A stretch of DNA of 64,000 nucleotides from an uncultured Bacteroidia bacterium (GTDB lineage Bacteria; CAIWAD01; BS150m-G50): assembly GCA_964517435.1 (NCBI GenBank), contig CAZFEC010000001.1, positions 7,518 to 71,517 of the forward strand. Reading direction: 5' to 3'. This document shows positions 6,488 to 56,427 of the stretch, in pieces (position 1 is the first letter of the stretch; each line of letters starts with the position of its first letter). The notes below the pieces were generated by a model that was not told the origin of the DNA, did no database searches, and was given only the letters and a program-made list of their open reading frames with translations. Both the position numbers and the translations under genes were made by a program.

Positions 6488-9223
6488 CTAGTTATCGCGC
6501 GACTGCTCTTCGGCTCGCGTTTCGTTCGTCGCCGGCGAGCTTGAAACGGAGGATGGACTGCCGGTGCCGCCGCTGTACAACTGGCGCAGGATCGCTCTTA
6601 TCTCCTGCAGACGGCTGCTGACCAGATCGGAGAGGTCGGGCGACGCCTCCGCCTGGAGCGCGGTGTTGATTTCGCTCAGTATCGGTTGCAGGCGCTGCTC
6701 CAGGTTCAGGCCCATCCGGCGCAGCGCGCGATCGCGCGATTCGGCCAGTATCTGACGGTCGAACACATCCTCCAGCTGCACCAGAAAACGGCAGGCATCA
6801 GGCCGCTCGGCCGGAAAGGGGCTGATCTGCAGGCTGACTAAAGTGCGGGGCGCATTCCCTCCCGGTTCCAGCCAGAGGTCGTTCAGCTCAAACGGTTGTC
6901 CAGTGCGTACGCAGATCTGGAAGCCCTGGTGCAGCGGCGTATCACGCAACTGCGGGAATCCCTCGAACAATCCCGGCCCGTGCATCAAATCGGGCGGCGC
7001 GCCGAGCAGCTCCCGGGCCCGCCCGTTCACGTGCAGCACCCGGCCCGATTCATCGAGCAGCAGCAGTGCACTCGACACCTGCTGCAGCGAACGGCGGTTG
7101 AATTCTTCCAGGATCTGCAGCTGCTGGGCGTCCCAGGTGAGTTCGGCGCCGGTGCGATGCAGGATGTCCCGCAGGCTGGCCCGCTGTTGCGGTTCGATGT
7201 AGTGATCGGCCATTTCGTCTTCGAAGAAACGCAGGCGCCGGTTGAGCGCCTTATCGACGCTCTGCCGGATATCGGTCATCGCGAAGGGATGGACGATGTA
7301 GTCATCCGCACCCAGGCGGATCGCTTCCACCGCCGTCTGGATGGAGCCATAGTTGGTCAGTACGATCACCGGAATGGTGAGATCGACCGCCTTGATGCGT
7401 CGCACGAAATCGAGTCCCTTGATACCGGGCAGATGCAGGTTGGTGAGGGCCAGATCGCAGTTGCGCTTCTGCAGCGCCTGTAACGCCTCTTCGCCGCTGC
7501 CGTAAGCGGTCACCTCGTAACCCCAGTTTCTGAAGACATCTTCCAGCACGTCGCGCTGGTTGCTCTGGCTGTCGATGATAAAAATGCAGAAGCCGCGTTC
7601 CGTTGTCGCTGGATTCAGCTCCTCCACCTGGCGGCTCTCCAGGTCGCTGCTCTCCGCCGGGCTCGCCTCCACGCCGGTACAATCGATGAACTCGCCGGGC
7701 GGCGTCTGCGCGACTATCTGGCCGGGACCGCGGCGTTTGGCCTGCAGCAGTGCCTGGTCGGCCATCCGCACCAGGTCCCGCGCTTTATACTCGCCGGGAC
7801 ATTGCACGACCATCCCCAGCGACAGGGAAAGCGGGGCGTGGCTGCCGCCCAATTCCAGCTGTTTCACCCCCTGCCGGATGCGGTTGGCCACCAGTATCGC
7901 TCCGTTCAGGTCGGTATCGGGCAGGAGCAGTACGAACTCGTCGCCGCCGTACCGGCCGGCGCTGTCGATATCACGTAAGGATTCCTGCAGCAGGGCGGGG
8001 AGCATCTGCAACACCTGGTCGCCGGTCTGGTGGCCGTAGGTGTCATTGTAGACCTTGAAGAAATCGAGATCGAGCATGATCACTGCCAGGCAGCTGTTCA
8101 GACGCTGCGAACGAGTGATCTCCAGCTCCACCCGTTGCAGCCAGGTGTTGCGCGACATCAGGCCGGTGAGATCGTCGTAGTGGGCGCGACGCGTGTTCTG
8201 GCGGATCTCCAGCGCCTGCGCCAGCGCGATGGCCGCTTCCGTCGTCATCTGCATGATGCGGCGCATGTTGGCTTCGGTCAGCGCCGGTTCGCCGGGATTG
8301 AAGAGATGCAACCGGCCGATGATGCGATAACCGTAGAGCAGTGGAATCACGATCACCGATTTGAACTGCGGGATCCGGGCCAGGAAGTGGTAGGGATGAT
8401 CGGAGCCGAGCTCCCCGATGTTCTCGACCAGCGTGCCCCGCTCGCGGTGGAAGAATGAGTCGCCGCTGCTGCGTTTCAGGTTAACCACCAGCTGGTCGAG
8501 CACCTCCTCAACCAGACCGCGGGCGGCGAAAGTATCGTAACCGCGGTTGAAGTCCTGGAAGACTGTCAACAAGCCGAGATCGGTCTGCAGCAGCTTGAGC
8601 CCCAGGCTGAGCGTGAGGTCGACCAGTTTGTTGAAATCCCGGGTAGAGTTGAATACCCGGAGAGTGGTCACGGCTTCCGGTTGCGAGAAACCGGCGGCGC
8701 CTGGCTGTTCGCACCAGAGTTCGTCCGTCAGCAGCGCGGTCAGTTCCCGCAGGAGTGATTGCAGACGCTCGGCGGCGGGCAGACGCAGACGGCCCTGCCG
8801 GCAACCCGCGCACAACACCCCCCTGACCTCGCCGTCTCCCAGCGGCAGCAGGATGGCATCGGTCAGTTCAGGGCGAACCAGGGCGATGCCTTCCGGCAGC
8901 CTGCCGGCGGTCAGACGTAGAATATTCCCCTCGCGCACAACCTGGCCGGCGGCGCTTGTATCCAGCGGGCAGCGGGCAAAGCGTGTGATTTCTGCCGGCA
9001 GGCCGGTGGCGGTACAGAGGTGGAGGATCTGTTCCTCCCGGTCAAACCTGAGGAGGGAACCGGTCTGCGCGCCCAGCGTTTCCAGACAGAGATTCAACAG
9101 AAGATGGGTAAGTCGATCGTGGAGTTGAAACCGCTCTTCAAGACGGTCCCGTTCGATCAACCCTGTTTGTGGATCCCCCTGCTTTTGCCTGCTGTCGTCG
9201 TTTCCATTACACTTCTTCATCAC
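6488..9223 (-). CDS. Multidomain c-di-GMP signalling protein: GAF-GAF-GGDEF (diguanylate cyclase)-REC-PAS
   Basis: GGDEF domain with RYGGDEFVLLLPDTD; downstream receiver domain with the conserved Asp/Lys pattern (IDSQ...DLALTNLHLPGIKG...DDYIVHPF); GAF-like N-terminal modules and a PAS-like C-terminal region. Confidence 0.8.
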   Translation of the reverse strand: MMKKCNGNDDSRQKQGDPQTGLIERDRLEERFQLHDRLTHLLLNLCLETLGAQTGSLLRFDREEQILHLCTATGLPAEITRFARCPLDTSAAGQVVREGNILRLTAGRLPEGIALVRPELTDAILLPLGDGEVRGVLCAGCRQGRLRLPAAERLQSLLRELTALLTDELWCEQPGAAGFSQPEAVTTLRVFNSTRDFNKLVDLTLSLGLKLLQTDLGLLTVFQDFNRGYDTFAARGLVEEVLDQLVVNLKRSSGDSFFHRERGTLVENIGELGSDHPYHFLARIPQFKSVIVIPLLYGYRIIGRLHLFNPGEPALTEANMRRIMQMTTEAAIALAQALEIRQNTRRAHYDDLTGLMSRNTWLQRVELEITRSQRLNSCLAVIMLDLDFFKVYNDTYGHQTGDQVLQMLPALLQESLRDIDSAGRYGGDEFVLLLPDTDLNGAILVANRIRQGVKQLELGGSHAPLSLSLGMVVQCPGEYKARDLVRMADQALLQAKRRGPGQIVAQTPPGEFIDCTGVEASPAESSDLESRQVEELNPATTERGFCIFIIDSQSNQRDVLEDVFRNWGYEVTAYGSGEEALQALQKRNCDLALTNLHLPGIKGLDFVRRIKAVDLTIPVIVLTNYGSIQTAVEAIRLGADDYIVHPFAMTDIRQSVDKALNRRLRFFEDEMADHYIEPQQRASLRDILHRTGAELTWDAQQLQILEEFNRRSLQQVSSALLLLDESGRVLHVNGRARELLGAPPDLMHGPGLFEGFPQLRDTPLHQGFQICVRTGQPFELNDLWLEPGGNAPRTLVSLQISPFPAERPDACRFLVQLEDVFDRQILAESRDRALRRMGLNLEQRLQPILSEINTALQAEASPDLSDLVSSRLQEIRAILRQLYSGGTGSPSSVSSSPATNETRAEEQSRDN

Positions 9224-10601
9224 CTTTCTCTTTATCCCGGAATCCCAGTTTCATCATCTTCGAATAGAGGGTACCCCGGCTGATCTCCAGAATTTTGGAG
9301 GTCTTGGAGAGGTTCCAGTTCGTCTCATTCAGACAGTGCTCGATCAGAGCCCGCTCCGCTTCCTGCAGCGTGCGCGATTTCAACTGCAGCGTCAGTTCGT
9401 TGTGGTCGCGCTTATGCACCACCTCGCCGGAGAGATCGCTGAGGGAGATCTTGCGGCCTTCCGTCAGCACCACCGCCCGTTCCAGGACATTGCGCAACTC
9501 GCGGATGTTGCCCGGCCAATCGTAGTTCACCAGCGCGTTCATCGCCGATTTGCCGACGGCGTCGATCCGCTTCTTCGTCTCCTCGGCGAACTGGGAGAGG
9601 AAAAAATCGACCAGCAGCGGAATATCCTCGCGGCGCTGACGCAGCGGCGGCACATCTATCGGTATCACGTTGAGGCGATAGTAGAGGTCCTCCCGGAAGG
9701 TTTTGTCCCGGATCAGTTGCGGTAGGTCCTGGTGCGTCGCCGAAATCAGCCGCACGTCGACCTTGATGGACTCAGTGCCGCCCACCCGTTCGAATTCCTG
9801 TGTCTGCAGCACCCGCACCAGCTTGATCTGTGTATGCAGCGGGATGTCGCCGATCTCATCCAGGAAGAGGGTGCCGTCACTGGCCAGCTCGAAGCGGCCC
9901 TTGCGCTGGGAGACGGCGGATGTGAAAGCGCCTTTCTCGTGGCCGAACAGCTCCGACTCCAGGACCCCCTCGGAAAAGGAGGCGCAGGAGGTCTTGATGA
10001 AGGGCTGCGACGACCGGAAGCTGAAGTAATGTATCACATGCGCGAGCAGCTCCTTGCCGGTGCCGCTTTCGCCGGTCAGCAGAATGGAGGAGTTGCTTTT
10101 GGCGGCGGTCGCCACGTTGCGAAAGACGTCCTGGATGGCGGTGGAGTTGCCGATGATGCTGTCGAAGCCGTACTTGCGGCTGAGGTCGGGCAGGAAGAAG
10201 TTGCGGTCGAGAAAGACCTCTTTCTCGCTCTCGATGCGCCGGATGCTGCTCAGCGCTTCGTCCGGGTTGAAAGGCTTGAGGATGTAATCCCACGCTCCTT
10301 TGCGCATCGCCTCCACGGCGCCGTCGACGCTGCCGAAGCCGGTCAGGACGATCACCTTGATGGAAGGGTAGAGGTCATGGACCATGCTGAGCAGTTCCAT
10401 GCCACCGATGCCCGGCATCTTGAGGTCGGTGATCATCAGGTCGTAATTGCCGTTTTCCCGTTCCAGACGATCCAGCGCTTCCTGTCCGGTGGAGGCGGTG
10501 GCAACCTGGTAGCCCTCATCCCGCAGAACATCTCCCATCGACTCGAGCATGTTGATCTCATCATCGACCATTAAGATCTGAAGTTTGCTCTCAGATGACA
10601 T
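9207..10601 (-). CDS. Sigma-54-dependent response regulator (NtrC family: REC-AAA+-HTH)
   Basis: REC domain (MVDDEINM...DLMITDLKMPG), sigma-54 interaction AAA+ domain ([15 protein letters not shown]; GAFTSA motif present as GAFTSAVSQRKGRFELA) and a C-terminal Fis-type HTH. The start overlaps the upstream GGDEF gene by 17 nt. Confidence 0.9.
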   Translation of the reverse strand: MSSESKLQILMVDDEINMLESMGDVLRDEGYQVATASTGQEALDRLERENGNYDLMITDLKMPGIGGMELLSMVHDLYPSIKVIVLTGFGSVDGAVEAMRKGAWDYILKPFNPDEALSSIRRIESEKEVFLDRNFFLPDLSRKYGFDSIIGNSTAIQDVFRNVATAAKSNSSILLTGESGTGKELLAHVIHYFSFRSSQPFIKTSCASFSEGVLESELFGHEKGAFTSAVSQRKGRFELASDGTLFLDEIGDIPLHTQIKLVRVLQTQEFERVGGTESIKVDVRLISATHQDLPQLIRDKTFREDLYYRLNVIPIDVPPLRQRREDIPLLVDFFLSQFAEETKKRIDAVGKSAMNALVNYDWPGNIRELRNVLERAVVLTEGRKISLSDLSGEVVHKRDHNELTLQLKSRTLQEAERALIEHCLNETNWNLSKTSKILEISRGTLYSKMMKLGFRDKEKGDEEV

Positions 10602-20277: not shown

Positions 20278-21041
20278 TGTCCGGCTACGGTTTCCCACCC
20301 GCCTGGCTGGCGGGAACTCCCCTGCAGTTGCCGTTGCGCTACTTCTCCCGCCAGGTGCCGCCCGGCCGCATCCTGTATCAAAGACAGAACAGCATCCTCT
20401 ATCATTACGCCAATCAGCTATTCGGTTGGGGTGAGCTGCCGCCGCCCCCATTGGTCAGCTGGCTGGAGCAGGGCGCGTCGCCGGGGCCGTTCTGGCTGCT
20501 GGCGCCGCCGGAGTGGCAGCCGGCCCTCGCCGCCTGGCTGGCGGGTTCGCGACTCACTCTCGCGGCGGGCGAACAGCAGTTGCTGGCCCTGCGGACTTCT
20601 CCGCCAGAACCGGTGCTGCTGCCCCCCGGCTTCCATTGCGCCCCACTGCGGGAGTATGACAACACGATCGGGGAACTGTATACGTTGTTCGAACGGGAGC
20701 TGCAGCTGCCCGCGAGCGGTTTGGAACCCCGGCAACAACTGGCGTCGGTCAACGAGCATGGCGAAGCCTGGGGTTTGTATCACGAGCGGGAGCTGGCCGG
20801 CAAACTGGATCTCCTCTACCCGGTTGACGACCAGGTCTGGGCCGGTGGCTTGTTTATTCGACCGCCATGGCGAGGCAACAAGCTGGGACGCCGTTTCCTC
20901 CTGCACCTGCTGCAGCAATCCCGCTTCCAGCGGCTCGAAATGCAGATCTCGCCGCAACTGTTGACTTACTACCAGGCGTTGGGATGCCAGCCGCTGTGTG
21001 AATTCATTTGGTACTATCTGAATCCAGTGAAAGTTGTCTGA
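20277..21041 (+). CDS. Hypothetical protein; the C-terminal ~90 aa resemble a GNAT acetyltransferase fold
   Basis: ORF start-coupled to mazG (TGATG). The C-terminus (VWAGGLFIRPPWRGNKLGRRFLLHLLQQSR...YYQALGC) has a GNAT-like beta-alpha pattern. The N-terminal 170 aa have no recognisable motif. Confidence 0.4.
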   Translation: MSGYGFPPAWLAGTPLQLPLRYFSRQVPPGRILYQRQNSILYHYANQLFGWGELPPPPLVSWLEQGASPGPFWLLAPPEWQPALAAWLAGSRLTLAAGEQQLLALRTSPPEPVLLPPGFHCAPLREYDNTIGELYTLFERELQLPASGLEPRQQLASVNEHGEAWGLYHERELAGKLDLLYPVDDQVWAGGLFIRPPWRGNKLGRRFLLHLLQQSRFQRLEMQISPQLLTYYQALGCQPLCEFIWYYLNPVKVV

Positions 21042-21186
21042 TGCGCCTGATTATTGCACAAACGCATATCATGTATTATCATACACTTAGAGACGCTGTT
21101 GTAGAATATTAACCAAAGTTATTTAGGAATAGAACCAGCTTCGCTTTAAGTGCCTGTTATGTAATCACTTTACAACGGACTAGTTC

Positions 21187-21202
21187 CGGCTTGATTCTTG
21201 CT
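21187..21202 (+). promoter_or_regulatory. Candidate sigma-54 (-24/-12) promoter element upstream of the LTD surface-protein gene
   Basis: cGGCttgattcTTGCt has GG and TTGC at the exact consensus spacing of TGGCAC-N5-TTGC(A/T). It sits inside a 257-bp AT-rich intergenic island, about 95 nt before the ATG at 21299. Confidence 0.3.
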
Positions 21203-21298
21203 GCTTAATTTTAAATGAGTGTTGAATTCCTGGTGGCTGACAATTTCAATCAAAAATAGAACTACATAACCACTTCACATTAACAAAATGGAGGAAGC

Positions 21299-24200
21299 AT
21301 GCGTAAACTCATCACCGGATTCATGATTCTGCTGACCGCCTCTTGGGCTATGGCGCTTAACCCGGGCGACCTGGTCGTCAACGAGATCATGCAGAATCCC
21401 GCCGCCGTCGCTGATTCGGATGGCGAGTGGTTTGAGGTTTACAACGCAACCGAACTAACCGTCAATCTGAATGGATTGGTTTTCACAGAAGATGCCTTCG
21501 GCAATATCTTCACAGTCGGAAGTGATGTTCTTATCGACGCCGGTGGCTATGCATTGCTGGCTCGGAATGCCGATCCGCTGGTAAATGGTGGTCTGCCTAC
21601 CGTCGACTATGTGTATCCCGGTGGTTATTATCTGGGTAACAGCTCTGACGAAGTTATCATCCTGGAGATCGTCGGTATCGATACCACTGTCATCGATGAA
21701 GTCTGGTACGACAACGGCGCCACCTTCCCCGATCCCAACGGCGCCAGCATGGCTTTGCTCAGCGTTGACCTGGACAACAACGTCGGTGCCAACTGGTACG
21801 AGGAATCGACCTTTACCTATGGTGACGGCGACTACGGTACTCCCGGCGCCGCCAACCAGCAGGAAGGTTTCCCGCTCATCACCGATGTTTCGCAGGTTCC
21901 CGGTGCTCCGGGCAGCAGCGATGATGTCGACATCACCGCGACCGTCACCGATCCGGCCACCCGAACGGTAGCCAACGTCGATCTCATCTATGATGTAGAT
22001 GGAGCGCCCGCTGTCATCGTCGACATGACTCCCGCTGGCGATATCTACAGCGGCACCATTCCGGCTCAGATTGCCGGCTCCGTCGTCACCTGGCGCATCG
22101 AAGCCACCGATGATGAGGATAACACCTCCTTCTTCGGACCGGTTGTCTACACCGTGGTGGATGTTCCGCTTTACAGCATCTACGATATCCAGTACTCAAC
22201 CGATCCCGATTACCCATCCCCCTATGAAGGGCAAATGGTACAGGTCACCGGTATCGTGACCGCCATCGGCCTCTCCGGCGACGGCAGCTTCTTCCTGCAG
22301 GATGACGAAGCCCCCTGGTGCGGTATCCAGATTTACGGCAACAACGACGGCGTCGCTATCGACGACTCGGTGACCGTCACAGGTATAGTCGAGGAGTATT
22401 ACACCCAGACCGAGCTGCACATCTACGGTTCGGATGTATTCACCATCCACTCCAGTGGCCACACTCCGGTGGAACCGCTGCTGGTTCCGGTCGGCACCGC
22501 TTACACTGAGCCTTACGAATCGGTACTGGTCCGGGTTGAGAATACCACCTGTGTCAGTCTGCCCGATGGCTACGGCGAGTGGGAAATCAGCGATGGCGTG
22601 GACACTGGTCTTGTCGATGACTGGTTCGTCAGCTTCACCCCGACTCTGGAACAGTGCTACGACATTCAGGGTCTGGTTTACTTCTACTATAACTACAAGA
22701 TCTGCCCACGCGACCTGAGCGAGATCACCATCTGCGGCGGCGGCAATCTGCCACCCACCATCACCGACGTCGCGCATGTACCGTTACTCCCGACCAGCGT
22801 CGATATCGTGACCGTCAGCGCGACGGTTACCGATGATGTCGGCGTCGCCAGTGTGGTGCTGAACTACAGTGTGGGCGGCGGCGGTTACGTACCAGTAGCC
22901 ATGACCCCCGGCATTGACGACCTCTACAGCGGTGACATACCGGCACAGGTTGACGGTTCGCATGTGGACTATTACCTCGTCGCCACCGACACGCCCGATG
23001 GGGATACAACTACCAGCGACATCGGATTCTATGATGTCATCGATGTCTACACCTGCGAAGACATCTCCAACATCCGTGTCGTTGACGTGGACGGCGTGCC
23101 GGTGATGGAAGGTCAAGCGGTGATGGTCTGCGGTGTGCTGACCGTCGCCCATGAATTCGGCTCCAGCGGCCCCGGCTATCTGGTTCATGAAACCGGTTCC
23201 GTAGCTTTCCACGGCGGCGTTTTCGGTGATGATACCAGTTTAATTATTGGCGACGAAGTCGAGGTTATCGGTATCGTCGGCGCTTATAACGGCCTGACCC
23301 AGATCCAGGATCCGCCGGTAGTCAACTTCATCGGCCATGTCGGTCCGCCCACTCCCACTGTCGTCACCCTGGCCACACTCGGTGCCGGCGGTGAAGCCTG
23401 GGAAGCGCAGCTGGTAACGGTAGAAGGTGTTACCCTGGTCGATCCGGAGAACTGGCCGGCTGAAGGGGATTACGCCACCGTGATCCTGCAACAGGGCGTC
23501 GATACTTATGACATGTACATTGACCGCGACACCAATATCGACGGTTCAATTGCGCCTACCGGCACCTTCAATGTAACCGGAGTCATCGGCCAGTACGACA
23601 CGACACTGCCTTGGACTGAAGGCTACAACATCTCTCCGCGTATGCTCGATGACGTCGGCGGCGGCGGCGAGCCTCCGGTCGTGACGATCTACGACATCCA
23701 GTACACCACAGATCCCTCCGGCGATTCACCGCTGGCCGGGCAGATGGTTACCACCAGCGGCATCGTCTACGCCGTCTCAGGCGCCGGTTTCTTCATCCAG
23801 GATGACGACGCCACCTGGTCCGGCATCCAGGTCTTCGGCGCCAACAACCAGATTGTGGTTGGTGATGAGGTCACGGTAACCGGCCAGGTTGTCGAGTACT
23901 ACAACTTCACCGAGCTGACCATCAGTGATTCCACCGCTTACACCATCCTGACGAGCGGCAATCCGCTCTATCCTGTAGCGCTGGGAACGATTCCGGCTAT
24001 CTATGTCGAGGACTACGAAGGTGTGTTCGTCGGTGTCCAGAATGTTACCTGCTCAAACATTGATCTGGGATACGGCGAATGGGAAATCACCGACGGTACC
24101 AACCTGGGTGTTGTCAACGACCTGATGTACGCCTATGTGCCAGTACTGGATGAGTGCTTCGACCTGGTACAGGGTGCTCTCACTTACGGTTTCGGTGCTT

Positions 24201-24454
24201 ACAAGATCGAACCGCGCGAGGCGGGTGATATCGTCAACTGTGCCACGCTGGATGCTCCGGTGGTCACCATCACCTATTCCGGCGGCAGTGCCATCCTCAC
24301 CTGGGATCCGGTCGACGGGGCCACCGACTACCGGGTACATGTCAGCACCGAGCCGTACGGCGGCTGGGATGCCGGCACTCTCACCGGCGGTCTGACCACC
24401 TACACCTACCCGTCAACAGGTATGTACTTCTTCCATGTTGTAGCGTTGAACTAG
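21299..24454 (+). CDS. Large secreted/surface protein with an N-terminal lamin-tail domain (LTD), three ExeM/NucH-N-terminal-like beta modules, two Ig-like modules and a C-terminal FN3-like domain
   Basis: Signal peptide MRKLITGFMILLTASWAMA; LTD signature LVVNEIMQNPAAVADSDGEWFEVYN. Internal repeats IYDIQY(S/T)TDP...GQMV...GIV...FF(L/I)QDD occur at ~22170-22640 and ~23680-24140, with a divergent third copy at ~23030-23640. The module pair (P(L/T)ITDV...TVTD...YSG(T/D)IPAQ(I/V)) is duplicated at ~21875-22130 and ~22750-23010. C-terminus is DYRVHVSTEPYGGW...FFHVVALN. No nuclease catalytic domain detected. Confidence 0.75.
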   Translation: MRKLITGFMILLTASWAMALNPGDLVVNEIMQNPAAVADSDGEWFEVYNATELTVNLNGLVFTEDAFGNIFTVGSDVLIDAGGYALLARNADPLVNGGLPTVDYVYPGGYYLGNSSDEVIILEIVGIDTTVIDEVWYDNGATFPDPNGASMALLSVDLDNNVGANWYEESTFTYGDGDYGTPGAANQQEGFPLITDVSQVPGAPGSSDDVDITATVTDPATRTVANVDLIYDVDGAPAVIVDMTPAGDIYSGTIPAQIAGSVVTWRIEATDDEDNTSFFGPVVYTVVDVPLYSIYDIQYSTDPDYPSPYEGQMVQVTGIVTAIGLSGDGSFFLQDDEAPWCGIQIYGNNDGVAIDDSVTVTGIVEEYYTQTELHIYGSDVFTIHSSGHTPVEPLLVPVGTAYTEPYESVLVRVENTTCVSLPDGYGEWEISDGVDTGLVDDWFVSFTPTLEQCYDIQGLVYFYYNYKICPRDLSEITICGGGNLPPTITDVAHVPLLPTSVDIVTVSATVTDDVGVASVVLNYSVGGGGYVPVAMTPGIDDLYSGDIPAQVDGSHVDYYLVATDTPDGDTTTSDIGFYDVIDVYTCEDISNIRVVDVDGVPVMEGQAVMVCGVLTVAHEFGSSGPGYLVHETGSVAFHGGVFGDDTSLIIGDEVEVIGIVGAYNGLTQIQDPPVVNFIGHVGPPTPTVVTLATLGAGGEAWEAQLVTVEGVTLVDPENWPAEGDYATVILQQGVDTYDMYIDRDTNIDGSIAPTGTFNVTGVIGQYDTTLPWTEGYNISPRMLDDVGGGGEPPVVTIYDIQYTTDPSGDSPLAGQMVTTSGIVYAVSGAGFFIQDDDATWSGIQVFGANNQIVVGDEVTVTGQVVEYYNFTELTISDSTAYTILTSGNPLYPVALGTIPAIYVEDYEGVFVGVQNVTCSNIDLGYGEWEITDGTNLGVVNDLMYAYVPVLDECFDLVQGALTYGFGAYKIEPREAGDIVNCATLDAPVVTITYSGGSAILTWDPVDGATDYRVHVSTEPYGGWDAGTLTGGLTTYTYPSTGMYFFHVVALN

Positions 24455-24477
24455 TTTCAGACTGCGACATTAACGAT

Positions 24478-24513
24478 AAAGGGCGGTCCCCCTTGCGGGA
24501 TCGCCCTTTTCTT
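24478..24513 (+). terminator. Rho-independent terminator after the LTD gene
   Basis: AAAGGGCGgtcccccttgcgggatCGCCCTTTTCTT: a GC-rich hairpin followed by a T-run, 24 nt after the stop codon. Confidence 0.5.
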
Positions 24514-24682
24514 ACGCCGGGTGCAATTACCGCGGATACAGTGGACGGATTAGTATGAATATTGCAAAAACCTCAATTCAACGAGACCTGATTCATCATT
24601 ATATTATTATATGACAAATTCTTTTCACTTTAAGCACTTCACTTTTATCAGATAGGGCTACTCCAGGATCGGAAGTGTTCAG

Positions 24683-26776
24683 TTGCTGCCCATTCGCTTC
24701 ACACGGATCCTTACCACGCTTTACTCGCTGCTACTGGCGTCGATGTTGTTCCTGCCGGAACTGTCGACGGCATTTGACGCCCACCGTGAGGGAGAGATGG
24801 TTCTTGAATACCGTTACCGTTTCAACTGCCAGAACCACGTCCCTGACCATCTGCTCGGCGTGATCGCGGTCAGCGGCAACCGGCTGGTGATCAGCGGGAA
24901 TCAGGGTTTAGCTTTGGTGGATCACTCCCTGCTGACCCCGGCCGGAACCGACATCGCCCTCTCCCGGCTCCTGGGTCTGAACGCCCGCGAGGTCTACCTC
25001 TACCAGCAGAACTATCTATTCGTCAATCTCAACGGCACCGGTGTGAATCCCGAAGCCGGTTTCGCTGTGGTCAGGATCGATGGGGACAACCTGACTCCGG
25101 TGACCATCGTCAGCTCCACCGCGGTGTTTTTCGAGAAGATGGCAATCGCGGGTAACTACTTGTACGTGGCCGCGCACAGCGGTGGTTTCCATGTCTATAG
25201 TATCTCCAATCCCGAAGCACCCTACTTTCGCGCTTCGATCCCGACCGGTTTTGTGAACGCCTATGCGGTCGCGGTCGCGGGTGATACCGCCTATGTCGCT
25301 GACGGCGGCGGCGGCTTGAAAGTAGTCGATATCTCGAATCCGCTATCGCCGCTTTTGGTTGGCGGCGAAACACTGGCTACAGCTGTCGGAACAGCGGAGG
25401 ATGTCACCTGTCGGAACGGGAAGGTCTTCCTGGCGGCGGGGGCGTCCGGTGTGGCGGTTTTCGACGGCGCCGATCTGGCCAGCCGGAGGCTGATCGAAGT
25501 CGGCGGTGCGGCGCGCTCTTTCAGCTGGGTGGGAGATCACCTGGCGGTCTCCACCATTCACGGTATCGCCATTCTGGGCGAGGTCGGTGGTGAGTATCAG
25601 CTGGTGGCGAGTGAGATCACCGGACGGCGTGGTCATAATGCCCGTCTGCGTCTGTGCGGCGCCATCGGCACTGCGGGTGACAGCCTGGTGCTCTGCGCCG
25701 ACTGGAACTGCATGGACGTCTATGAACTGATGGAGTTCAACACCGGCAGTCAACCCGACATCAGTTGCGACCGGCAGCGGATTCGTTTTCATCCTGATGG
25801 CGAATCAGTCACGGCCACCGTCTGGAACAATGGCGCCGGGGATCTTCACATCACCGCCGTCAATGTCAATCCACCTTCCTTCAGCAGCGATTTCACGCCG
25901 GTCACATTGCAGCCGGGTGAGAGTCTGGGATTTCAGATCAGTTATAACGGTTCCGCCCAGCAGGACAGCGGTCTGGTACGGATCATGTCCGACGATCCGG
26001 ACGAAAGTCCGTTTCCGATCCAGATCTTCGGCGAGACAGGATACCTGAATCCAGGGGACCAGGCACTCGACTTCACACTGCCGCTCTATACCCGTGATCA
26101 CGGGACCGGGACCTACAGCTGGGAGCCGTTCACCCTTTCAGAGCAGCTGGGAAAAGTGATCTGGTTCCAGGCCTACGGGAGCTGGTGACCTGCCTGCACA
26201 CCCGCGGTCGCGGATATGCAGAACAGCATTGTCAAGGAATTCACAGGCAACCCGCAGGTGCGGCTGGCACTTTTGAATCCAGGTGACAGCCATAGCGAGA
26301 CCCTGGCCTGGACGCAGCACTTCTGGGACAATAACTATTTACGGGGGAGTTTTCTCTACGACAACGACGGCAGCGTTGACTCGTTGTACGAGCAACCCGC
26401 CACCGGCCTGCCTTTCGGGCGCGGTTTCATCATCGACCAGCAGGGTAATGTCGATCTGCCGTTTTTCGGTCACAACCCGCAGATGGTGATCGCGCGGATC
26501 TATGAACTGTTGGAGGACTCACCTCCGACCGCTCCGCAAAACCTCGCCGCGTTTGTAACCGGCGCGGACCTGGAGCTGATGTGGAGCCCGGTCACCGCCG
26601 ATGTCTGGGGTAATCCGATGACGGTCAACCATTACCGCGTGTATCGCGGCCAGGAGCCGTATTTCACTTGTGATGGTGAGCACCTGCTGGGGGAGACCGC
26701 TGACTGCTTTTATACAGTCGCTGGAGCGATGAGTCAGCCCGGTGGCTTCTTCAAGGTAACCGCAGGTTACCCGTAA
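24683..26776 (+). CDS. Candidate selenoprotein: secreted LVIVD-repeat beta-propeller fused to a TlpA/redoxin-like thiol:disulfide oxidoreductase domain (U-x-x-C) and an FN3-like domain; in-frame TGA (Sec?) at 26186..26188
   Basis: Track ORFs 24683..26188 and 26216..26776 share one frame, separated only by the TGA. The redoxin fold spans the TGA: ...GDQALDFTLPLY...LGKVIWFQAYGSW-[TGA]-PACTPAV...GLPFGRGFIIDQQGNV. The TGA therefore replaces the first Cys of W-C-x-x-C. The N-terminus has a signal-peptide-like helix and LVIVD-like propeller repeats (YVAAHSGGFHVYSISNPEAP, AYVADGGGGLKVVDISNPLSP). Confidence 0.55.
26194..26221 (+). promoter_or_regulatory. SECIS-like mRNA hairpin immediately downstream of the in-frame UGA
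   Basis: CUGCA-ca-CCGC-GGUC-GCGG-aua-UGCAG: a 5-bp lower stem, an internal loop, a 4-bp upper stem and a GGUC apical loop. The upper helix starts 13 nt 3' of the UGA, comparable to the ~11-nt spacing and G/U-containing apical loop of the E. coli fdhF bacterial SECIS. Confidence 0.4.
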
Positions 26777-26830
26777 TCGCAGGTTACCCGTAATCGCAGG
26801 TTACCCGTAATCGCAGGTTACCCGTAATCG
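26761..26830 (+). repeat. Tandem 17-bp direct repeat (cgcaggttacccgtaat, 4 copies) spanning the stop codon, followed by a hairpin
   Basis: Four perfect head-to-tail copies starting at 26761, 26778, 26795 and 26812. The unit is not a multiple of 3 and carries TAA in shifting frames. Each copy has the palindrome-related GGTTACC, and the preceding GGTAACC can pair with it. A hairpin AGTCTCAgcgctgagTGAGACT follows at ~26833..26854. Confidence 0.8.
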
Positions 26831-26894
26831 CCAGTCTCAGCGCTGAGTGAGACTACCGCGTTCGTATGTGTCGGATCCTGATTCAACCTCGGGA

Positions 26895-27916
26895 TCAGGT
26901 AATCCCGAGGTACTTCCGCAGGCTTTCTATCTGGACGTCGGTGCCCAGTACTACCATCTGATCGCCCGTTTCGAGCAGCGTCCTCGCGTTAGCCACCTCC
27001 AGCTGGTCCGCCGCCTGCTTGCGACCGACATGATGAGGATCCCGTCGGTACGCTTGCGGATGTCGGTGTCATGCAGCTGCTTGTCGACGCAGGGGGCGTC
27101 GGGCGGTATTTCAACTTGCACCATGCGGTAGTCGGTCTCGCCGCGGGTGACGAAGGTGTCCAGGAAGTCGGCGACGGCCGGCTGCAGCATCATGGCCGCC
27201 ATGCGGCGCCCGCCGATCAGCGATGGCGAGATCACCTTGTCGGCGCCGGCCTGCTGCAGCTTCTTGTCGGCATGCGGTTCGATTCCCTTGGTGATGATAT
27301 TGAGAGTGGGATTCATTTCACGCGCGGTCAGCACTACGTAGAGGTTGGCCGCATCGCTGTCGAGAGTCGTCAGCAATCCCTGCGCGTGTTCTATGCCGCT
27401 GCGCCACAGGGTCTCCTCATGGGTGACGTCCGCTTCGATCACCAGCAGATCGCCGGCGCGAGCCTCCTCGCACCGTGCCGCGTTCTTCTCGATGATGACG
27501 ATATCGAGGTTGGCACTGGTGAAGGAGCGAGCCAGTTCGGCGCCGACATGGCCGTATCCGCAGATGATATAGTGTTCCCGCAGTTTGCTGATCAGAGTGT
27601 CCATTTTTCTGCCTCGCAAGAAATCCTGAATAACACCGGAGGTGATGGCGGCGGTCAGGGTGGAAAGGATGAACCCCGCCAGACCGACACCGGCCAGAAC
27701 ATAGAAAATCGTGAAATACTGACCCGCGACGCTGAGTTCGTGAACTTCGCCGAAACCGACGGTGGTCAGAGCGATAACCGACATGTAGAACGCATCGAGC
27801 GGACTCTACCCCTCCAGCAGCATGTAGCCGCTGGCGCCGATTCCGATCAGCACCAGCAGCATCGCGGGCAGCGCCAGTAGGCGCGGGCGGGAAATCGAAT
27901 GCGTTTTAAGTATCAT
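26895..27916 (-). pseudogene. RCK/TrkA-domain potassium channel gene, apparently inactivated (in-frame TAG at a conserved Trp plus a probable 3' frameshift)
   Basis: Minus-strand translation from ATG 27916 gives MILKTHSISRPRLLALPAMLLVLIGIGASGYMLLEG-[TAG at 27808..27806]-SPLDAFYMSVIALTTVGFGE (selectivity filter), then a TrkA-N Rossmann motif (IICGYGHVG). K+ channels have EGW-S..DA.Y at this point, so TGG to TAG is inferred. The track ORF 26951..27784 ends in non-protein-like sequence (ASRRRTSWRWLTRGRCSKRAIRW). A +1 frame continues with a typical TrkA-C ending (ANARTLLETGDQMVVLGTDVQIESLRKYLGIT) to a TGA at 26897..26895. Confidence 0.5.
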
Positions 27917-32066: not shown

Positions 32067-32375
32067 AGGAACTCCCCGGCTATACCTGTGAAGTGAGACA
32101 CAGTTCAGCTGCTGCGAACTTGAGTATTAATAAAGCGTCCAGCAACAAAATGCGCACGTAAATCACCGTTTTCAGGAACGCCTTGCATGGGGACCGTGGC
32201 ACATGCTAATTCAAGATGTACAAGTGATAAGTGACGAATGAGTACTTACTTTGATTTTCTCGTTCGCATGAGGAATCGCTGCAGCAGCTCGTATCGCGGT
32301 CACGCTTGTTGTATCCCGACACATCGGGATGTGACAAGCTTCGTCACATGATAATTCCTGGGGCAAAGAATAAGC

Positions 32376-49955: not shown

Positions 49956-51323
49956 CTACTCGAGTTTGAACTTGCGAATGCGGTAGCGCAGTGTTTCCCG
50001 GGAGAGACCGAGCCGCCTGGCGGCCTGGCTGACGTTGTAGCGGGATTGCTCCAGTACCTCCTTGATGATCTGCTTTTCGTGCTCCACCAGGGAGAAACCC
50101 TCCTGCGGAATCATTAAACCGTTGTGGTTGTTCGATCGGGCCGTTTCCACAGTGTTGCCTTCCCGGTGCAGATACAAGTGATCGGGATCGATCCAGTCCT
50201 GACTCTCCACCAGCACCGCCCGTTCCAGCGCGTTGCGCAGCTCCCGGATATTGCCGGGCCAGTGATAATTCCGCATCGCCTCCCGCGCACCATCGGTCAG
50301 CCCCTGAATCTGCTTGCGGTATTCCAGGTTGAATTCACTGATGAAGTGCTCCGCCAGCAGAATGGCATCCTCTTTCCGCTCCCGTAGCGGCGGCAGCTCC
50401 AGCGTCAACACATTGAGGCGGTAATAGAGGTCTTCCCGGAAGCGTCCCTCCTTGATCATCTTTTCGAGGTCGCGGTGAGTCGCCGCGATGAAGCGGATAT
50501 CCACTTCCATGTTGGCGGTGCCGCCGAGACGGCGGATCGCCTTCTGCTCCAGCACCCGCAGCAGCTTGGCCTGCAGCTCCAGTTCCATGTCGCCGATTTC
50601 ATCCAGGAAGAAGGTGCCGCCGGAGGCCTTTTCAATCAGACCGATTTTTCGCTGACGGGCGTCTGTGAAAGCACCCTTCTCATATCCGAACAATTCCGAT
50701 TCCAGCAGGGTGGTGGGCATGGCGGAACAGTTAATCTCGAGAAACGGTTCTTTCGAACGCGTGGAGTGTTTGTGGATGGCGTGCGCCAGCAGCTCTTTGC
50801 CGGTCCCGGTTTCCCCTTTGATCAGCACGGTGGCGCTGGGACTGGCCGCCACGCGCGGCACCATGTCGAGCACCTTCCTGAAAGCGGGTGAATCACCCAG
50901 CATGCTGGGCGGTTCCAGCTTGCGTTGCCGGCTGGCCAGGATGTCGCGATCGCGTTCCAGCTTGCGCTGGGTGACGGCGTGTTCGATAATCAGGCGCAGG
51001 CGTTCCAGCTGGAGCGGTTTGGTAATGAAATCGTAGGCGCCCAGCTTCATCGATTTGACCACCATTTCGGTGTCGGTGTAGCCGGTGATCATGATCACCG
51101 GCAGGTCGGCGTCGGTCTCCCGGATCTTGCCGAGGAGATCCAGGCCGGAGATGCCGGGCAACTGTATATCGAGTAGAATCAGTTCGGGCGATTGTTCGTT
51201 AAAGGCGTTGAGAGCTTCCTCCGCATCCTTGAAGAGGTCGACCCGGTGCCCCTGATCGGTCAGGAATAGATCCAGCATCCGCCGGATATCCTGGCCATCA
51301 TCCACGACGAAAATGTGACTCAT
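49956..51323 (-). CDS. Sigma-54-dependent response regulator (NtrC/Fis family: REC-AAA+-HTH)
   Basis: REC domain ([10 protein letters not shown]...[10 protein letters not shown]), AAA+ sigma-54 activator domain ([15 protein letters not shown]; GAFTDA) and a C-terminal HTH. Confidence 0.9.
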
Positions 51324-55331: not shown

Positions 55332-56427
55332 CGGCTGAACTTTCGGTTATCAGGTGGATCCAGCTGCAATATGATTATTATCGACAGACGAACCAAGGAT
55401 ATTTGGTGATATGCACCAGGTTGGTTCTTTTTTGGAGGAGCAAGAAAGAATGCTCACAGAACCACGAATTCGAATCTGCAATTTCTGAACTGACTTGTTG
55501 GCATCATCGCCTTGCGTTTGTTGGGCTCATACATTAACGCGAATAGGATTGGTATCTTTTCGGGATTCGGAATCGGTATCGGAATTCGGTTTTCAACAGC
55601 AGTCAATTAACCGCGAATGAACGCGCTTTCGAACCTGTAACGGTTGAATAAACCCGCACGATAGTCTGCCTTGTGCCGAAGGCACTGGAATAGACGCTAA
55701 TTTGGGTTAGTATGGTGCCGGGATTCGGAATCGGGATCGGTATCGGTCCTAGAAACGTCATTAATGAGAGATAATGTCTGGTGTTGAGCCCGAAAACAGC
55801 AGGTGCGTAAACAGTCGCGTTCATTCTCGGTTCAATAGGTAATCTCAATCGAATGCCCGAGGTCGAGGCCGGAGCAATAGCAATTCGCGACCATTCGTGG
55901 TTCCAGGATATCCCAGCTTCACATTAACCCATCTCACATAAAGCAATCCTTCACCGATATCCCAAATATCGTTGCTGGCCAACGAGATCGCGCGTCATCC
56001 AATCTCCCTGTCTTGAGATCGCTCCCATTTGTTTACATAATATATCTTATGCGAACATACTGATATTTTAAACCGGCTGCCATAGCGCCTCCTGCGCTCT
56101 TCCCTGTCGTGTGGAAAACCGGTTTGATAACTCGGTTTTTTCATTTTTTTGACGATTCCCCCGATTTTCCGGTTATCCGGTCTCTGAAAGCGTGACGAGG
56201 CGGCGCCTGGGATAGATCCCACTCCGAGCAGCTCGCCGGAACCAATACCTGTCCCCCGGCCCAATTTTCGTAAAAAGTTGACATGCGAATCCTTTTTTCC
56301 GAAATTGGGTTAAATACCGGTCCGATACTGAAATCCCCCGGTAAGCGCCCGGAATGGCTCAAACCTGATCGCAACAGGCTGCAGATTCGCACTTGATCAT
56401 CATCGTGGTGATTTCATTCGCGCTTGA

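Follow-up and report, generated by a model that had tools for sequence, protein, structure and literature searches.

In this study, we analysed a gene for a secreted lamin-tail domain (LTD) protein, located at 21299..24454 (+) of a 64,000-nt stretch of DNA from an uncultured bacterium (hereafter the window), together with the intergenic region in front of it. The gene is preceded by a conserved -24/-12 element with the features of a sigma-54 promoter, and its product is a chain of seven modules that includes three tandem OB-fold pairs homologous to the substrate-binding half of extracellular DNases. The explanation that we favour as a whole, with confidence somewhat better than even, is that the gene is driven by sigma-54 and that its non-catalytic product captures extracellular nucleic acid. 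Within a Candidatus Delongbacteria genome, the LTD gene would be a transcription unit complete in itself, transcribed from a sigma-54 (RpoN) promoter with a start expected near 21213. Initiation would require an ATP-dependent enhancer-binding protein (EBP) bound further upstream, within a spacer that is rich in AT and probably bendable, production would be on only when this sigma-54 activator senses its signal, and transcription would end at a hairpin at 24478-24513. The product, predicted to be exported via its Sec signal peptide, would be a non-catalytic, extremely acidic chain (LTD, immunoglobulin-like (Ig-like), tandem-OB, Ig-like, tandem-OB, tandem-OB and C-terminal sandwich modules) suited to capturing or tethering extracellular nucleic acid in a multivalent manner, on the cell surface or within the matrix, probably via divalent cations, for scavenging, uptake or matrix building. 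The regulatory features of the gene are as follows.

21042..21298, + strand: intergenic regulatory region, 257 bp, 36.2% GC
21048..21070, + strand: conserved block TGATTATTGCACAAACGCAT, about 150 nt 5' of the predicted start; candidate activator site (upstream activating sequence)
21183..21202, + strand: sigma-54-type -24/-12 element GTTC-CGGCTT-GATTC-TTGCT, with GG at 21188-21189 and GC at 21200-21201
21214..21221, + strand: conserved AATGAGTG, about 13 nt past the -12 GC, with AATGA invariant in the alignment; predicted start region
21271..21283, + strand: leader motif CACTTCACATTAA, just 5' of the Shine-Dalgarno sequence; conserved in locus L001
21290..21294, + strand: Shine-Dalgarno sequence GGAGG, 4 nt 5' of the ATG
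24478..24513, + strand: intrinsic terminator, AAAGGGCGGTCCC / GGGATCGCCCTTT, then TCTT

A sequence-only reading of this DNA had proposed a 1051-aa open reading frame (ORF) behind an AT-rich upstream region of 257 bp, a sigma-54 element with exact spacing at 21187..21202, two sigma-54 EBPs elsewhere in the window and, from these, possible control by an alternative sigma factor. The ORF (ATG start), the element and both EBP genes are present as it described, and, among the window's 19 intergenic gaps with a length of 60 bp or more, the upstream region has the lowest GC content (the next being 41.7%); the background is 60.3% GC and not the ~65% that had been assumed. The 16-mer cGGCttgattcTTGCt lies exactly at 21187..21202, with GG and GC 10 nt apart and TTGC at -12. 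By itself, this site proved insufficient for the inference of alternative-sigma control. The window contains 1052 occurrences of GG-N10-GC where about 1013 are expected, and this pattern was rejected as evidence in its own right; the stand-alone p of the site is ~0.08, and sites in the window that score at least 8/11 number 89. The regulatory claim is instead strongly supported by conservation, by spacing and strand controls and by an outgroup control.

The 16-mer is identical in the window, in loci L001-L003/L005 (70% ortholog) and in locus L006 (67%), in each case within intergenic DNA that is heavily diverged. Synonymous sites are saturated in comparisons with those orthologs (proportion of synonymous differences 0.67-0.71, synonymous substitutions per site (dS) 1.65-2.26), and for that reason neutral DNA would not be expected to keep 16 identical bases. 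Bases flanking the 16-mer are also kept in the window, L001/L005 and L006, namely GTT(C/T) on the upstream side and, some 13 nt downstream, AATGA. Sigma-54-dependent transcription usually starts about 11-13 nt downstream of the -12 GC, which is the geometry by which the start region was predicted. Elements were also found in front of the LTD genes of the diverged loci L004 and L015-L018, which stand for four further lineages, three of them with gene neighbourhoods other than that of the window.

L004: CGGCAC-AATCC-TTGCT (10/11), GC to start codon 237 nt
L015: AGGCAT-GAAAA-TTGCC, GC to start codon 106 nt
L016: GGGCAT-AATTA-TTGCT, GC to start codon 105 nt
L017: GGGCAT-AGCTT-TTGCT, GC to start codon 107 nt
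L018: AGGCAT-GATTC-TTGCA, GC to start codon 123 nt

Together, all eight of the family upstream regions examined, which represent six lineages and several gene neighbourhoods, carry GGC-N8-TTGC on the sense strand. The only family gene lacking a site is P0005, the second of a tandem pair, which lies 169 nt behind P0007. Across lineages the GGC and TTGC are kept at a fixed spacing and the spacer between them varies (lineage consensus nGGCAY-N5-TTGCT, with GGCTT in the window's clade), a combination that is the signature of sigma-54 and not of a palindromic operator. In the spacing and strand control, the canonical sense arrangement scored at least 8/11 in 8/8 regions, as opposed to 17/104 cells for other spacings (N2-N8 except N5) or the antisense strand. 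In shuffled sequence, a single region yields a match at any position with a probability of 0.07-0.29, which falls to about 0.01 if the match has to lie 90-115 nt from the ATG, a distance range that was picked after the data were seen. Lastly, none of six loci of LTD/OB homologues from other phyla (0/6) has such a site within 450 nt. Based on these comparisons, we consider it highly probable that the element at 21187-21202 is a functional sigma-54 promoter. The two sigma-54 EBPs encoded in the window, which are treated here as genomic context for the promoter, are:

9207..10601, - strand: sigma-54 enhancer-binding response regulator; Sigma54_activat 230 bits plus Response_reg and HTH_8; Walker A present; loop GAFTSA
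49956..51323, - strand: sigma-54 enhancer-binding response regulator; Sigma54_activat 238 bits plus Response_reg and HTH_8; loop GAFTDA

EBPs usually act only with sigma-54. There are nevertheless several points that weigh against a sigma-54 promoter. The window element CGGCTTGATTCTTGCT matches TGGCAC-N5-TTGCW at just 8/11 positions, which for the site alone is at chance level (7-8.5% of dinucleotide shuffles of the spacer give an equal match), its -24 region retains only GGC, and -26 is never T in any lineage. The contact loops of both EBPs are non-canonical, being GAFT(S/D)A where GAFTGA is the canonical form; GAFTDA is listed among the functional variants in Desulfovibrio vulgaris (PMC4641369), and GAFTSA was not found in a literature search. 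No ORF with an RpoN box (rpoN) was found in the window or in 18 loci, and no activator motif (9-mers, up to 1 mismatch) is common to at least five lineages. Most of these points, together with the presence of further conserved blocks nearby (21048-21070, 21214-21221 and 21271-21283), would also fit a repressor or activator operator, or the promoter of some other alternative sigma factor, that resembles a -24/-12 element by accident. We consider that account unlikely, as it leaves unexplained a spacing- and strand-specific signal in which GGC and TTGC flank a variable spacer at a fixed 10-nt GG-GC distance, and EBPs are frequent in the genome, with two in 64 kb. A chance match in an AT-rich spacer, with expression from a housekeeping promoter or by read-through of the SpoU-MazG-GNAT genes, would agree with the isolated-site p of about 0.08 and with the lack of a terminator between the promoter and the same-strand upstream genes, from which read-through could also express the LTD gene. 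A scan for sigma-70-like promoters returned six sites versus 3.1 +/- 1.7 in shuffles, including weak hexamers at 21055-21082; such sites are judged no commoner than in shuffled sequence and none is conserved. Chance is hard to reconcile with perfect conservation across saturated divergence and with recurrence in independent contexts (8/8 versus a background of 16%), and we regard it as very improbable.

Within the sigma-54 interpretation, the candidate activator site is the block at 21048-21070, whose motif TTG(C/T)ACA-N3-(G/T)CAT is kept in the window, L001/L005 and L006. This conservation is confined to the close clade, with no such block found among the more distant lineages. The AT-rich spacer may serve DNA bending for looping. 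No terminator-like site, short inverted repeat or Rfam family was detected inside the gap at 21042..21298. A horizontal-island origin of the AT-rich region was considered and rejected, given that synteny is kept and that the GC content of the gene is near background. On its 5' side the gap is preceded by a + strand housekeeping run of aconitase, PrpD, SpoU methylase and MazG genes and a weak GNAT-like ORF ending at 21041, and the order aconitase-PrpD-SpoU-MazG-hypothetical-LTD is kept in related loci. The neighbours of the LTD gene are the GNAT-like gene and, downstream, LVIVD/AhpC and TrkA-channel genes. Orthologs keep TGGAGGAA(G/T)CATGCGTAAACTC at the Shine-Dalgarno sequence. At the 3' end, the terminator hairpin begins 24 nt past the stop codon and has 13-nt arms (92% complementary) with a 6-nt loop; it was overlooked by the combined sigma-70 and terminator scan and was revealed by an inverted-repeat search. 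Because of this hairpin, the LTD gene looks monocistronic at its 3' end.

The leader motif, written in general form as CACTTCAC(A/T)TT(A/T)A, recurs elsewhere in the window. It is exact in the LTD leader (21271-21283) and before the LVIVD gene (24621-24647), where there is a second exact copy at 24635 as well as a degenerate tandem copy. Sites were also listed at 32083-32095 (-) and 55915-55927, and a copy with two mismatches lies 17 nt 5' of the GlgP start codon. Allowing up to two mismatches, six matches were found in the window against 1.64 expected, a count equalled by 1 of 100 shuffles. The motif may serve as an element of the leader or of translation, or as the site of a regulator.

We then consider the protein itself, whose architecture was determined from hidden Markov model (HMM) searches, AlphaFold2 models (with pLDDT, a predicted local distance difference test score, as measure of model confidence) and comparison of the sequence with itself. 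Repeats were found by masked-chunk BLASTP self-comparison and the module edges were then refined with a local HMM.

21299..24454, + strand: coding sequence of the secreted LTD / tandem-OB repeat protein, 1051 aa
21299..21355, + strand: signal peptide, residues 1-19 (MRK / hydrophobic core / AMA-LN)
21356..21871, + strand: lamin-tail domain region, residues 20-191, Pfam PF00932
21872..22153, + strand: module B1, all-beta sandwich, residues 192-285; seven AlphaFold2 strands, block pLDDT mostly 76-91
22154..22756, + strand: module A1, tandem OB-fold pair, residues 286-486
22757..23044, + strand: module B2, all-beta sandwich, residues 487-582, from self-comparison and AlphaFold2
23045..23665, + strand: module A2 (A'), divergent tandem OB pair, residues 583-789; local HMM 252 bits, 27% identical to A1
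23666..24262, + strand: module A3, tandem OB pair, residues 790-988; 45-48% identical to A1
24263..24451, + strand: C-terminal conserved beta-sandwich, residues 989-1051; AlphaFold2 strands, block pLDDT 81-89 over most of it

Much of the domain content had been anticipated by the sequence-only reading, whose signal peptide, LTD, two interleaved Ig-like modules (B1 and B2), internally duplicated order LTD-B-A-B-A'-A and lack of a nuclease catalytic domain were all recovered. The N-terminus, MRKLITGFMILLTASWAMA followed by LN, reads as a standard Sec signal with no lipobox Cys, and AlphaFold2 places a helix at residues 2-17. The LTD passes the Pfam threshold for PF00932 (37.4 bits versus a gathering score of 34.3; residues 21-123, profile positions 4-96 of 109); it was left unresolved in the full-length AlphaFold2 model, for which the alignment was shallow (10 sequences). 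Self-comparison paired residues 192-285 with 486-580 (B, about 50% identity) and 290-485 with 793-987 (A, about 48%), with the A' copy at 603-714+ being about 30% identical. Module B gave only weak matches, to CBM_56, in HMM searches. The resulting order is signal peptide-LTD-B-A-B-A'-A-C-terminal sandwich, with the seven modules tiling the entire chain, and neither PF03372 nor PF19580 was matched at E<=1; no EEP or other nuclease domain was found. Other parts of the reading required revision. Its three beta modules of ~150 aa do exist as three copies, but each is ~200 aa long and is a pair of OB folds, and the IYDIQ...FFxQDD signature assigned to them occurs in only two of the three. Its FN3-like C-terminal domain is indeed a beta-sandwich in the AlphaFold2 model and has a weak match to PDB 3mpc (E 0.16), but no Pfam family matched the C-terminal 100 residues at E<=10. 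FN3 and C-terminal type IX secretion system (T9SS) sorting domain assignments were dropped, and the resemblance to FN3 is an impression given by motif only.

The C-terminal sandwich is conserved in orthologs, in which L1000, W1002, Y1011, F1044, V1047 and A1049 are invariant. Unlike the relatives P0101, P0110, P0122, P0127 and P0131, the protein has no match to Por_Secre_tail or TIGR04183-type T9SS sorting domains at its C-terminus. A similar small beta-sandwich, with the common pattern L.W.PV...YRV...EPY...FF.V.A, was noted in the LTD protein (24251-24451) and in the product of a neighbouring selenoprotein candidate described below (26501-26773). The two C-termini align by BLASTP with an E of 7e-4 (31% over 45 aa) and neither matches Pfam; the sandwich may be a lineage-specific domain of exported proteins. 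A Foldseek search with the full-length model returned only generic multi-sandwich matches (TM <= 0.12) and was uninformative.

For module A, in which Y82, T86, E119, E122 and R186 (module numbering) are conserved, an AlphaFold2 model from a 28-copy alignment comprised two consecutive small beta-barrels (pLDDT 92.1, predicted template modelling score 0.87), each a five-stranded closed beta-barrel superposing on known OB folds, and Foldseek matched the module to tandem-OB units that include Teb1-AB and the p204 and MNDA HIN-dsDNA complexes. Homology to the N-terminal part of ExeM/NucH-type nucleases, which the earlier reading had recognised by motif, was borne out by the NCBIfam profile ExeM_NucH_DNase (NF033681), which matched three times, each time only over profile positions about 15-113 of 546. 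The module profile also matched Streptococcus pyogenes nuclease A (SpnA; PDB 9sf8/9sf9) with an E of 1.4e-9 on the first OB domain of the construct and, weakly, further along the chain; residues 806-890 of A3 align to that first domain (chain residues 10-108 of PDB 9sf8). The cryo-EM model of SpnA resolves OB3 and OB4 with the nuclease domain, and earlier work found OB2 and OB3 to be essential for DNA binding and cleavage (cited in PMC13601614). In Shewanella ExeM a 'YhcR-like' double-OB region is essential for activity and the LTD is dispensable (PMC6085458). Where the sequence-only reading had spoken vaguely of a surface or adhesion factor, the evidence is more specific and indicates the part of extracellular DNases that binds the substrate. 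A relationship to DUF5689 (PF18942) also appears to exist, judged from sequence to be remote only: 4 of 28 module homologues have DUF5689 matches at E<=0.01 (best E 5e-6).

The nearest full-length relatives of the LTD protein are 70, 64-67 and 53% identical and come from Candidatus Delongbacteria metagenome-assembled genomes and related metagenome bins; the full-length architecture is retained in at least six lineages at 38-70% identity, and the ratio of non-synonymous to synonymous substitution rates (dN/dS) of 0.11-0.13 against the 67-70% orthologs indicates purifying selection. A metagenome scan for further orthologs yielded one locus only, L018. Module A itself is far more widespread. An exhaustive profile search identified 16,748 module-bearing cluster representatives at E<=1e-3, 2,214 of them at E<=1e-30, often with 2-7 copies, and tandem copies also occur in the EEP-bearing LTD-EEP nucleases P0019, P0044 and P0049. 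Ten top matches were sampled, two of which have an EEP domain. As the other eight lack a nuclease domain, nuclease-less multi-OB proteins are common; six of these eight end in T9SS sorting domains.

There remain substantial reasons for caution as to the ligand. The mature chain contains 2 Lys and 10 Arg versus 150 Asp+Glu (K+R 1.2%, D+E 14.5%), which makes the net charge about -138; that of each OB module is -25 to -28. Such acidity is the opposite of a typical DNA-binding surface and argues against simple DNA binding. It is not a feature of the genome at large, as other proteins of the window have an ordinary composition and K/R depletion is far stronger in the LTD protein than in the window's other secreted proteins, and it is kept in the orthologs P0002-P0007, P0040, P0043 and P0057 (0-4 Lys in 825-1308 residues, K+R 1.2-1.9%, D+E 11-16%). 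Family assignment is also incomplete: the NF033681 matches total 76.4 bits, below the curated cut-off of 300 bits, and DUF5689 scores 21.4 bits at residues 683-786, below its gathering score of 28.6. In addition, SpnA OB1-2 have been proposed to bind complement components, that is host proteins and not DNA (PMC13601614). Due to the extreme acidity, our confidence in nucleic acid as the ligand was lowered to somewhat short of even.

Possibly, then, the promoter is real and the protein binds no nucleic acid, being instead a polyanionic adhesin, a cation- or mineral-binding or S-layer-like coat, or a binder of glycans or proteins in which OB folds and LTD have been re-used. This is a credible account, if not a probable one. 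It would make sense of a charge conserved in all orthologs, of the weak CBM_56 matches of module B and of the T9SS-sorted surface cargo among the sampled nuclease-less relatives (6/8); OB folds bind sugars and proteins as well, and, as reported by Mans et al. (cited in PMC6085458), LTDs occur alongside domains that bind oligosaccharides. Acidity does not discriminate between the two possibilities, however, as the OB modules of EEP-bearing relatives are equally acidic (net -20 to -32). Moreover, the closest relatives with experimental data are substrate-binding regions of DNases, and by fold the matches are OB and HIN domains that bind nucleic acids. Given the equally acidic modules of nuclease-bearing relatives, and given that ExeM was assayed with Ca2+ and Mg2+, both of which its authors state support its nucleolytic activity (PMC6085458), cation-bridged binding of nucleic acid by the LTD protein is plausible by analogy. 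A different alternative is that the gene is a decaying, functionless ExeM/NucH remnant that has lost its catalytic domain, as its architecture equals the N-terminal part of LTD-OB-EEP nucleases. This reading was rejected, and we regard it as extremely unlikely, on the basis of the low dN/dS and the conservation of the full-length architecture; the gene is also equipped with a conserved promoter, a Shine-Dalgarno sequence and a terminator of its own, and nuclease-less relatives are common.

A broader form of the nucleic-acid capture explanation can be proposed, although we consider it doubtful. The family would be a non-enzymatic extracellular nucleic-acid 'harpoon', a polyanionic chain of three HIN-like OB units plus an LTD that binds DNA through Ca2+/Mg2+ bridges, is produced on a signal relayed by sigma-54 and an EBP (e.g., nutrient limitation) and passes extracellular DNA to separate nucleases or uptake systems, or cross-links the matrix; with its relatives it would represent a widespread, unrecognised class of bacterial receptors that take up DNA contacts at the surface and are relatives of DdbD/DUF5689. 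Extracellular DNA serves both as a major source of phosphorus and nitrogen and as a scaffold of biofilms. It is only of late that surface DNA receptors without catalytic activity have been proposed, with DdbD/DUF5689 in Bacteroidales and a Riemerella transformation gene. Module A abounds in metagenomes, in most cases with no nuclease domain in the protein. In the locus described here, what resembles the substrate-binding half of ExeM/NucH/SpnA-type DNases stands as an independent, conserved and apparently separately regulated gene. If the ligand is not DNA, the K/R depletion would still be an unusual design for an OB-fold protein. The Delongbacteria are a little-known candidate phylum without cultured members, for which this is among the few well-supported promoter predictions, and nGGCAY-N5-TTGCT could serve to map the sigma-54 regulon of their genomes. 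Nothing categorically new is involved; what the locus adds is a clean prediction of regulation for a phylum that is unstudied, a design that is very unusual in its charge, and a connection to surface DNA receptors as an emerging class.

Several observations were made on the loci of relatives. On contig ERZ21862645:ctg38548l (3.72 Mb; L014/L015) the tandem paralogues P0007 (1116 aa) and P0005 (1333 aa) occur, the latter with a second LTD match in the precomputed Pfam list; only the first gene of the pair has a -24/-12 element, which suggests an operon. In L004, L016 and L017 the LTD gene is downstream of a conserved block of M16 peptidase, dUTPase, polysaccharide deacetylase and MerR-family genes, with PNPase in L016 and L017 only, and the nearest regulator is the MerR gene and not an EBP. 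In L016 and L017 the LTD gene is followed by FG-GAP and S49 peptidase genes.

The gene downstream of the LTD gene in the window is a selenoprotein candidate. Two + strand ORFs, 24683..26188 (an LVIVD beta-propeller of 501 aa) and 26216..26776 (186 aa), share one frame and are split only by the TGA at 26186-26188. Read through, this TGA gives ...VIWFQAYGSW-U-PAC..., a UxxC motif of the thioredoxin fold, and with U replaced by C the junction scores 35.8 bits to Pfam AhpC-TSA versus a gathering score of 26. A hairpin, CUGCA-CAC-CCGC[GGUC]GCGG-AUA-UGCAG (26194-26221), begins 6 nt past the UGA, with an energy z-score of just -1.08. L006 (6327-8510) has the TGA, its context and the hairpin in identical form. 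From its sequence, 24683-26776 is probably a secreted selenoprotein of ~696 aa that is split by ORF callers. The LVIVD/AhpC gene lies between the LTD and TrkA-type channel genes in the window (24455-26950) and in L006 (6160-8510); the L001-L003 and P0003 loci lack it and have the channel gene directly after the LTD gene (L001 9157-9324). By comparison of these loci, its presence or absence is an insertion or deletion within otherwise conserved synteny.

Comparison with known systems places the locus close to several of them. The promoter element is like those of sigma-54 (-24/-12) promoters in having GG and GC 10 nt apart and TTGC(T) at -12, in the sense orientation about 100 nt 5' of the start codon and in a genome with EBP genes, and is unlike them in that the lineage consensus has no T at -26. 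With the ExeM/NucH/Xds/SpnA-type endonucleases (NF033681; COG2374) the protein shares a Sec signal, an N-terminal LTD and a homologous OB-fold pair, which in those enzymes adjoins the nuclease domain, including the motifs IxxIQ...SP..GQ.V..G.V...FF.QD...GDEV.V.G.V.EY..TE. It differs in having no EEP domain, in having the OB pair triplicated and interleaved with Ig-like sandwiches and in being far more acidic and lysine-poor. Judged by sequence, the LTD protein resembles the substrate-binding half of these DNases and is not a member of the nuclease family, as it has no catalytic domain and scores below the cut-off. DdbD, a DUF5689 protein, is predicted to bind DNA at the surface as the partner of a TonB-dependent transporter from a Bacteroides DNA-utilisation locus (bioRxiv 10.1101/2025.03.18.642099), and another DUF5689 protein, RA0C_RS04920, is needed for natural transformation of Riemerella (PMC8459023). 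The LTD protein is like DUF5689/DdbD in that the latter consists of a tandem-OB (HIN/p202-like) unit that lies outside the cytoplasm, has no catalytic activity and is proposed to hold DNA on the surface of the cell, although DdbD's own DNA binding is a structural prediction. Unlike DdbD, the LTD protein is below the Pfam gathering score, lacks a lipoprotein signal and an adjacent TonB-dependent transporter and has three modules plus an LTD. Although it belongs to neither the nuclease family nor, by the Pfam threshold, to DUF5689, its most plausible mode of action is that of the parts which hold DNA in these two systems. The resemblance to HIN-200 proteins (AIM2, p202, p204 and MNDA) is a structural analogy only, with 7-16% identity, and HIN domains are basic whereas module A is strongly acidic. 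Finally, T9SS-sorted multi-OB surface proteins of the FCB group (e.g., P0110, P0122, P0127 and P0131) are likewise nuclease-less and have 2-4 copies of module A; they end in Por_Secre_tail, FlgD_ig or CHU_C domains, whereas the LTD protein starts with an LTD and ends in a different conserved C-terminal sandwich.

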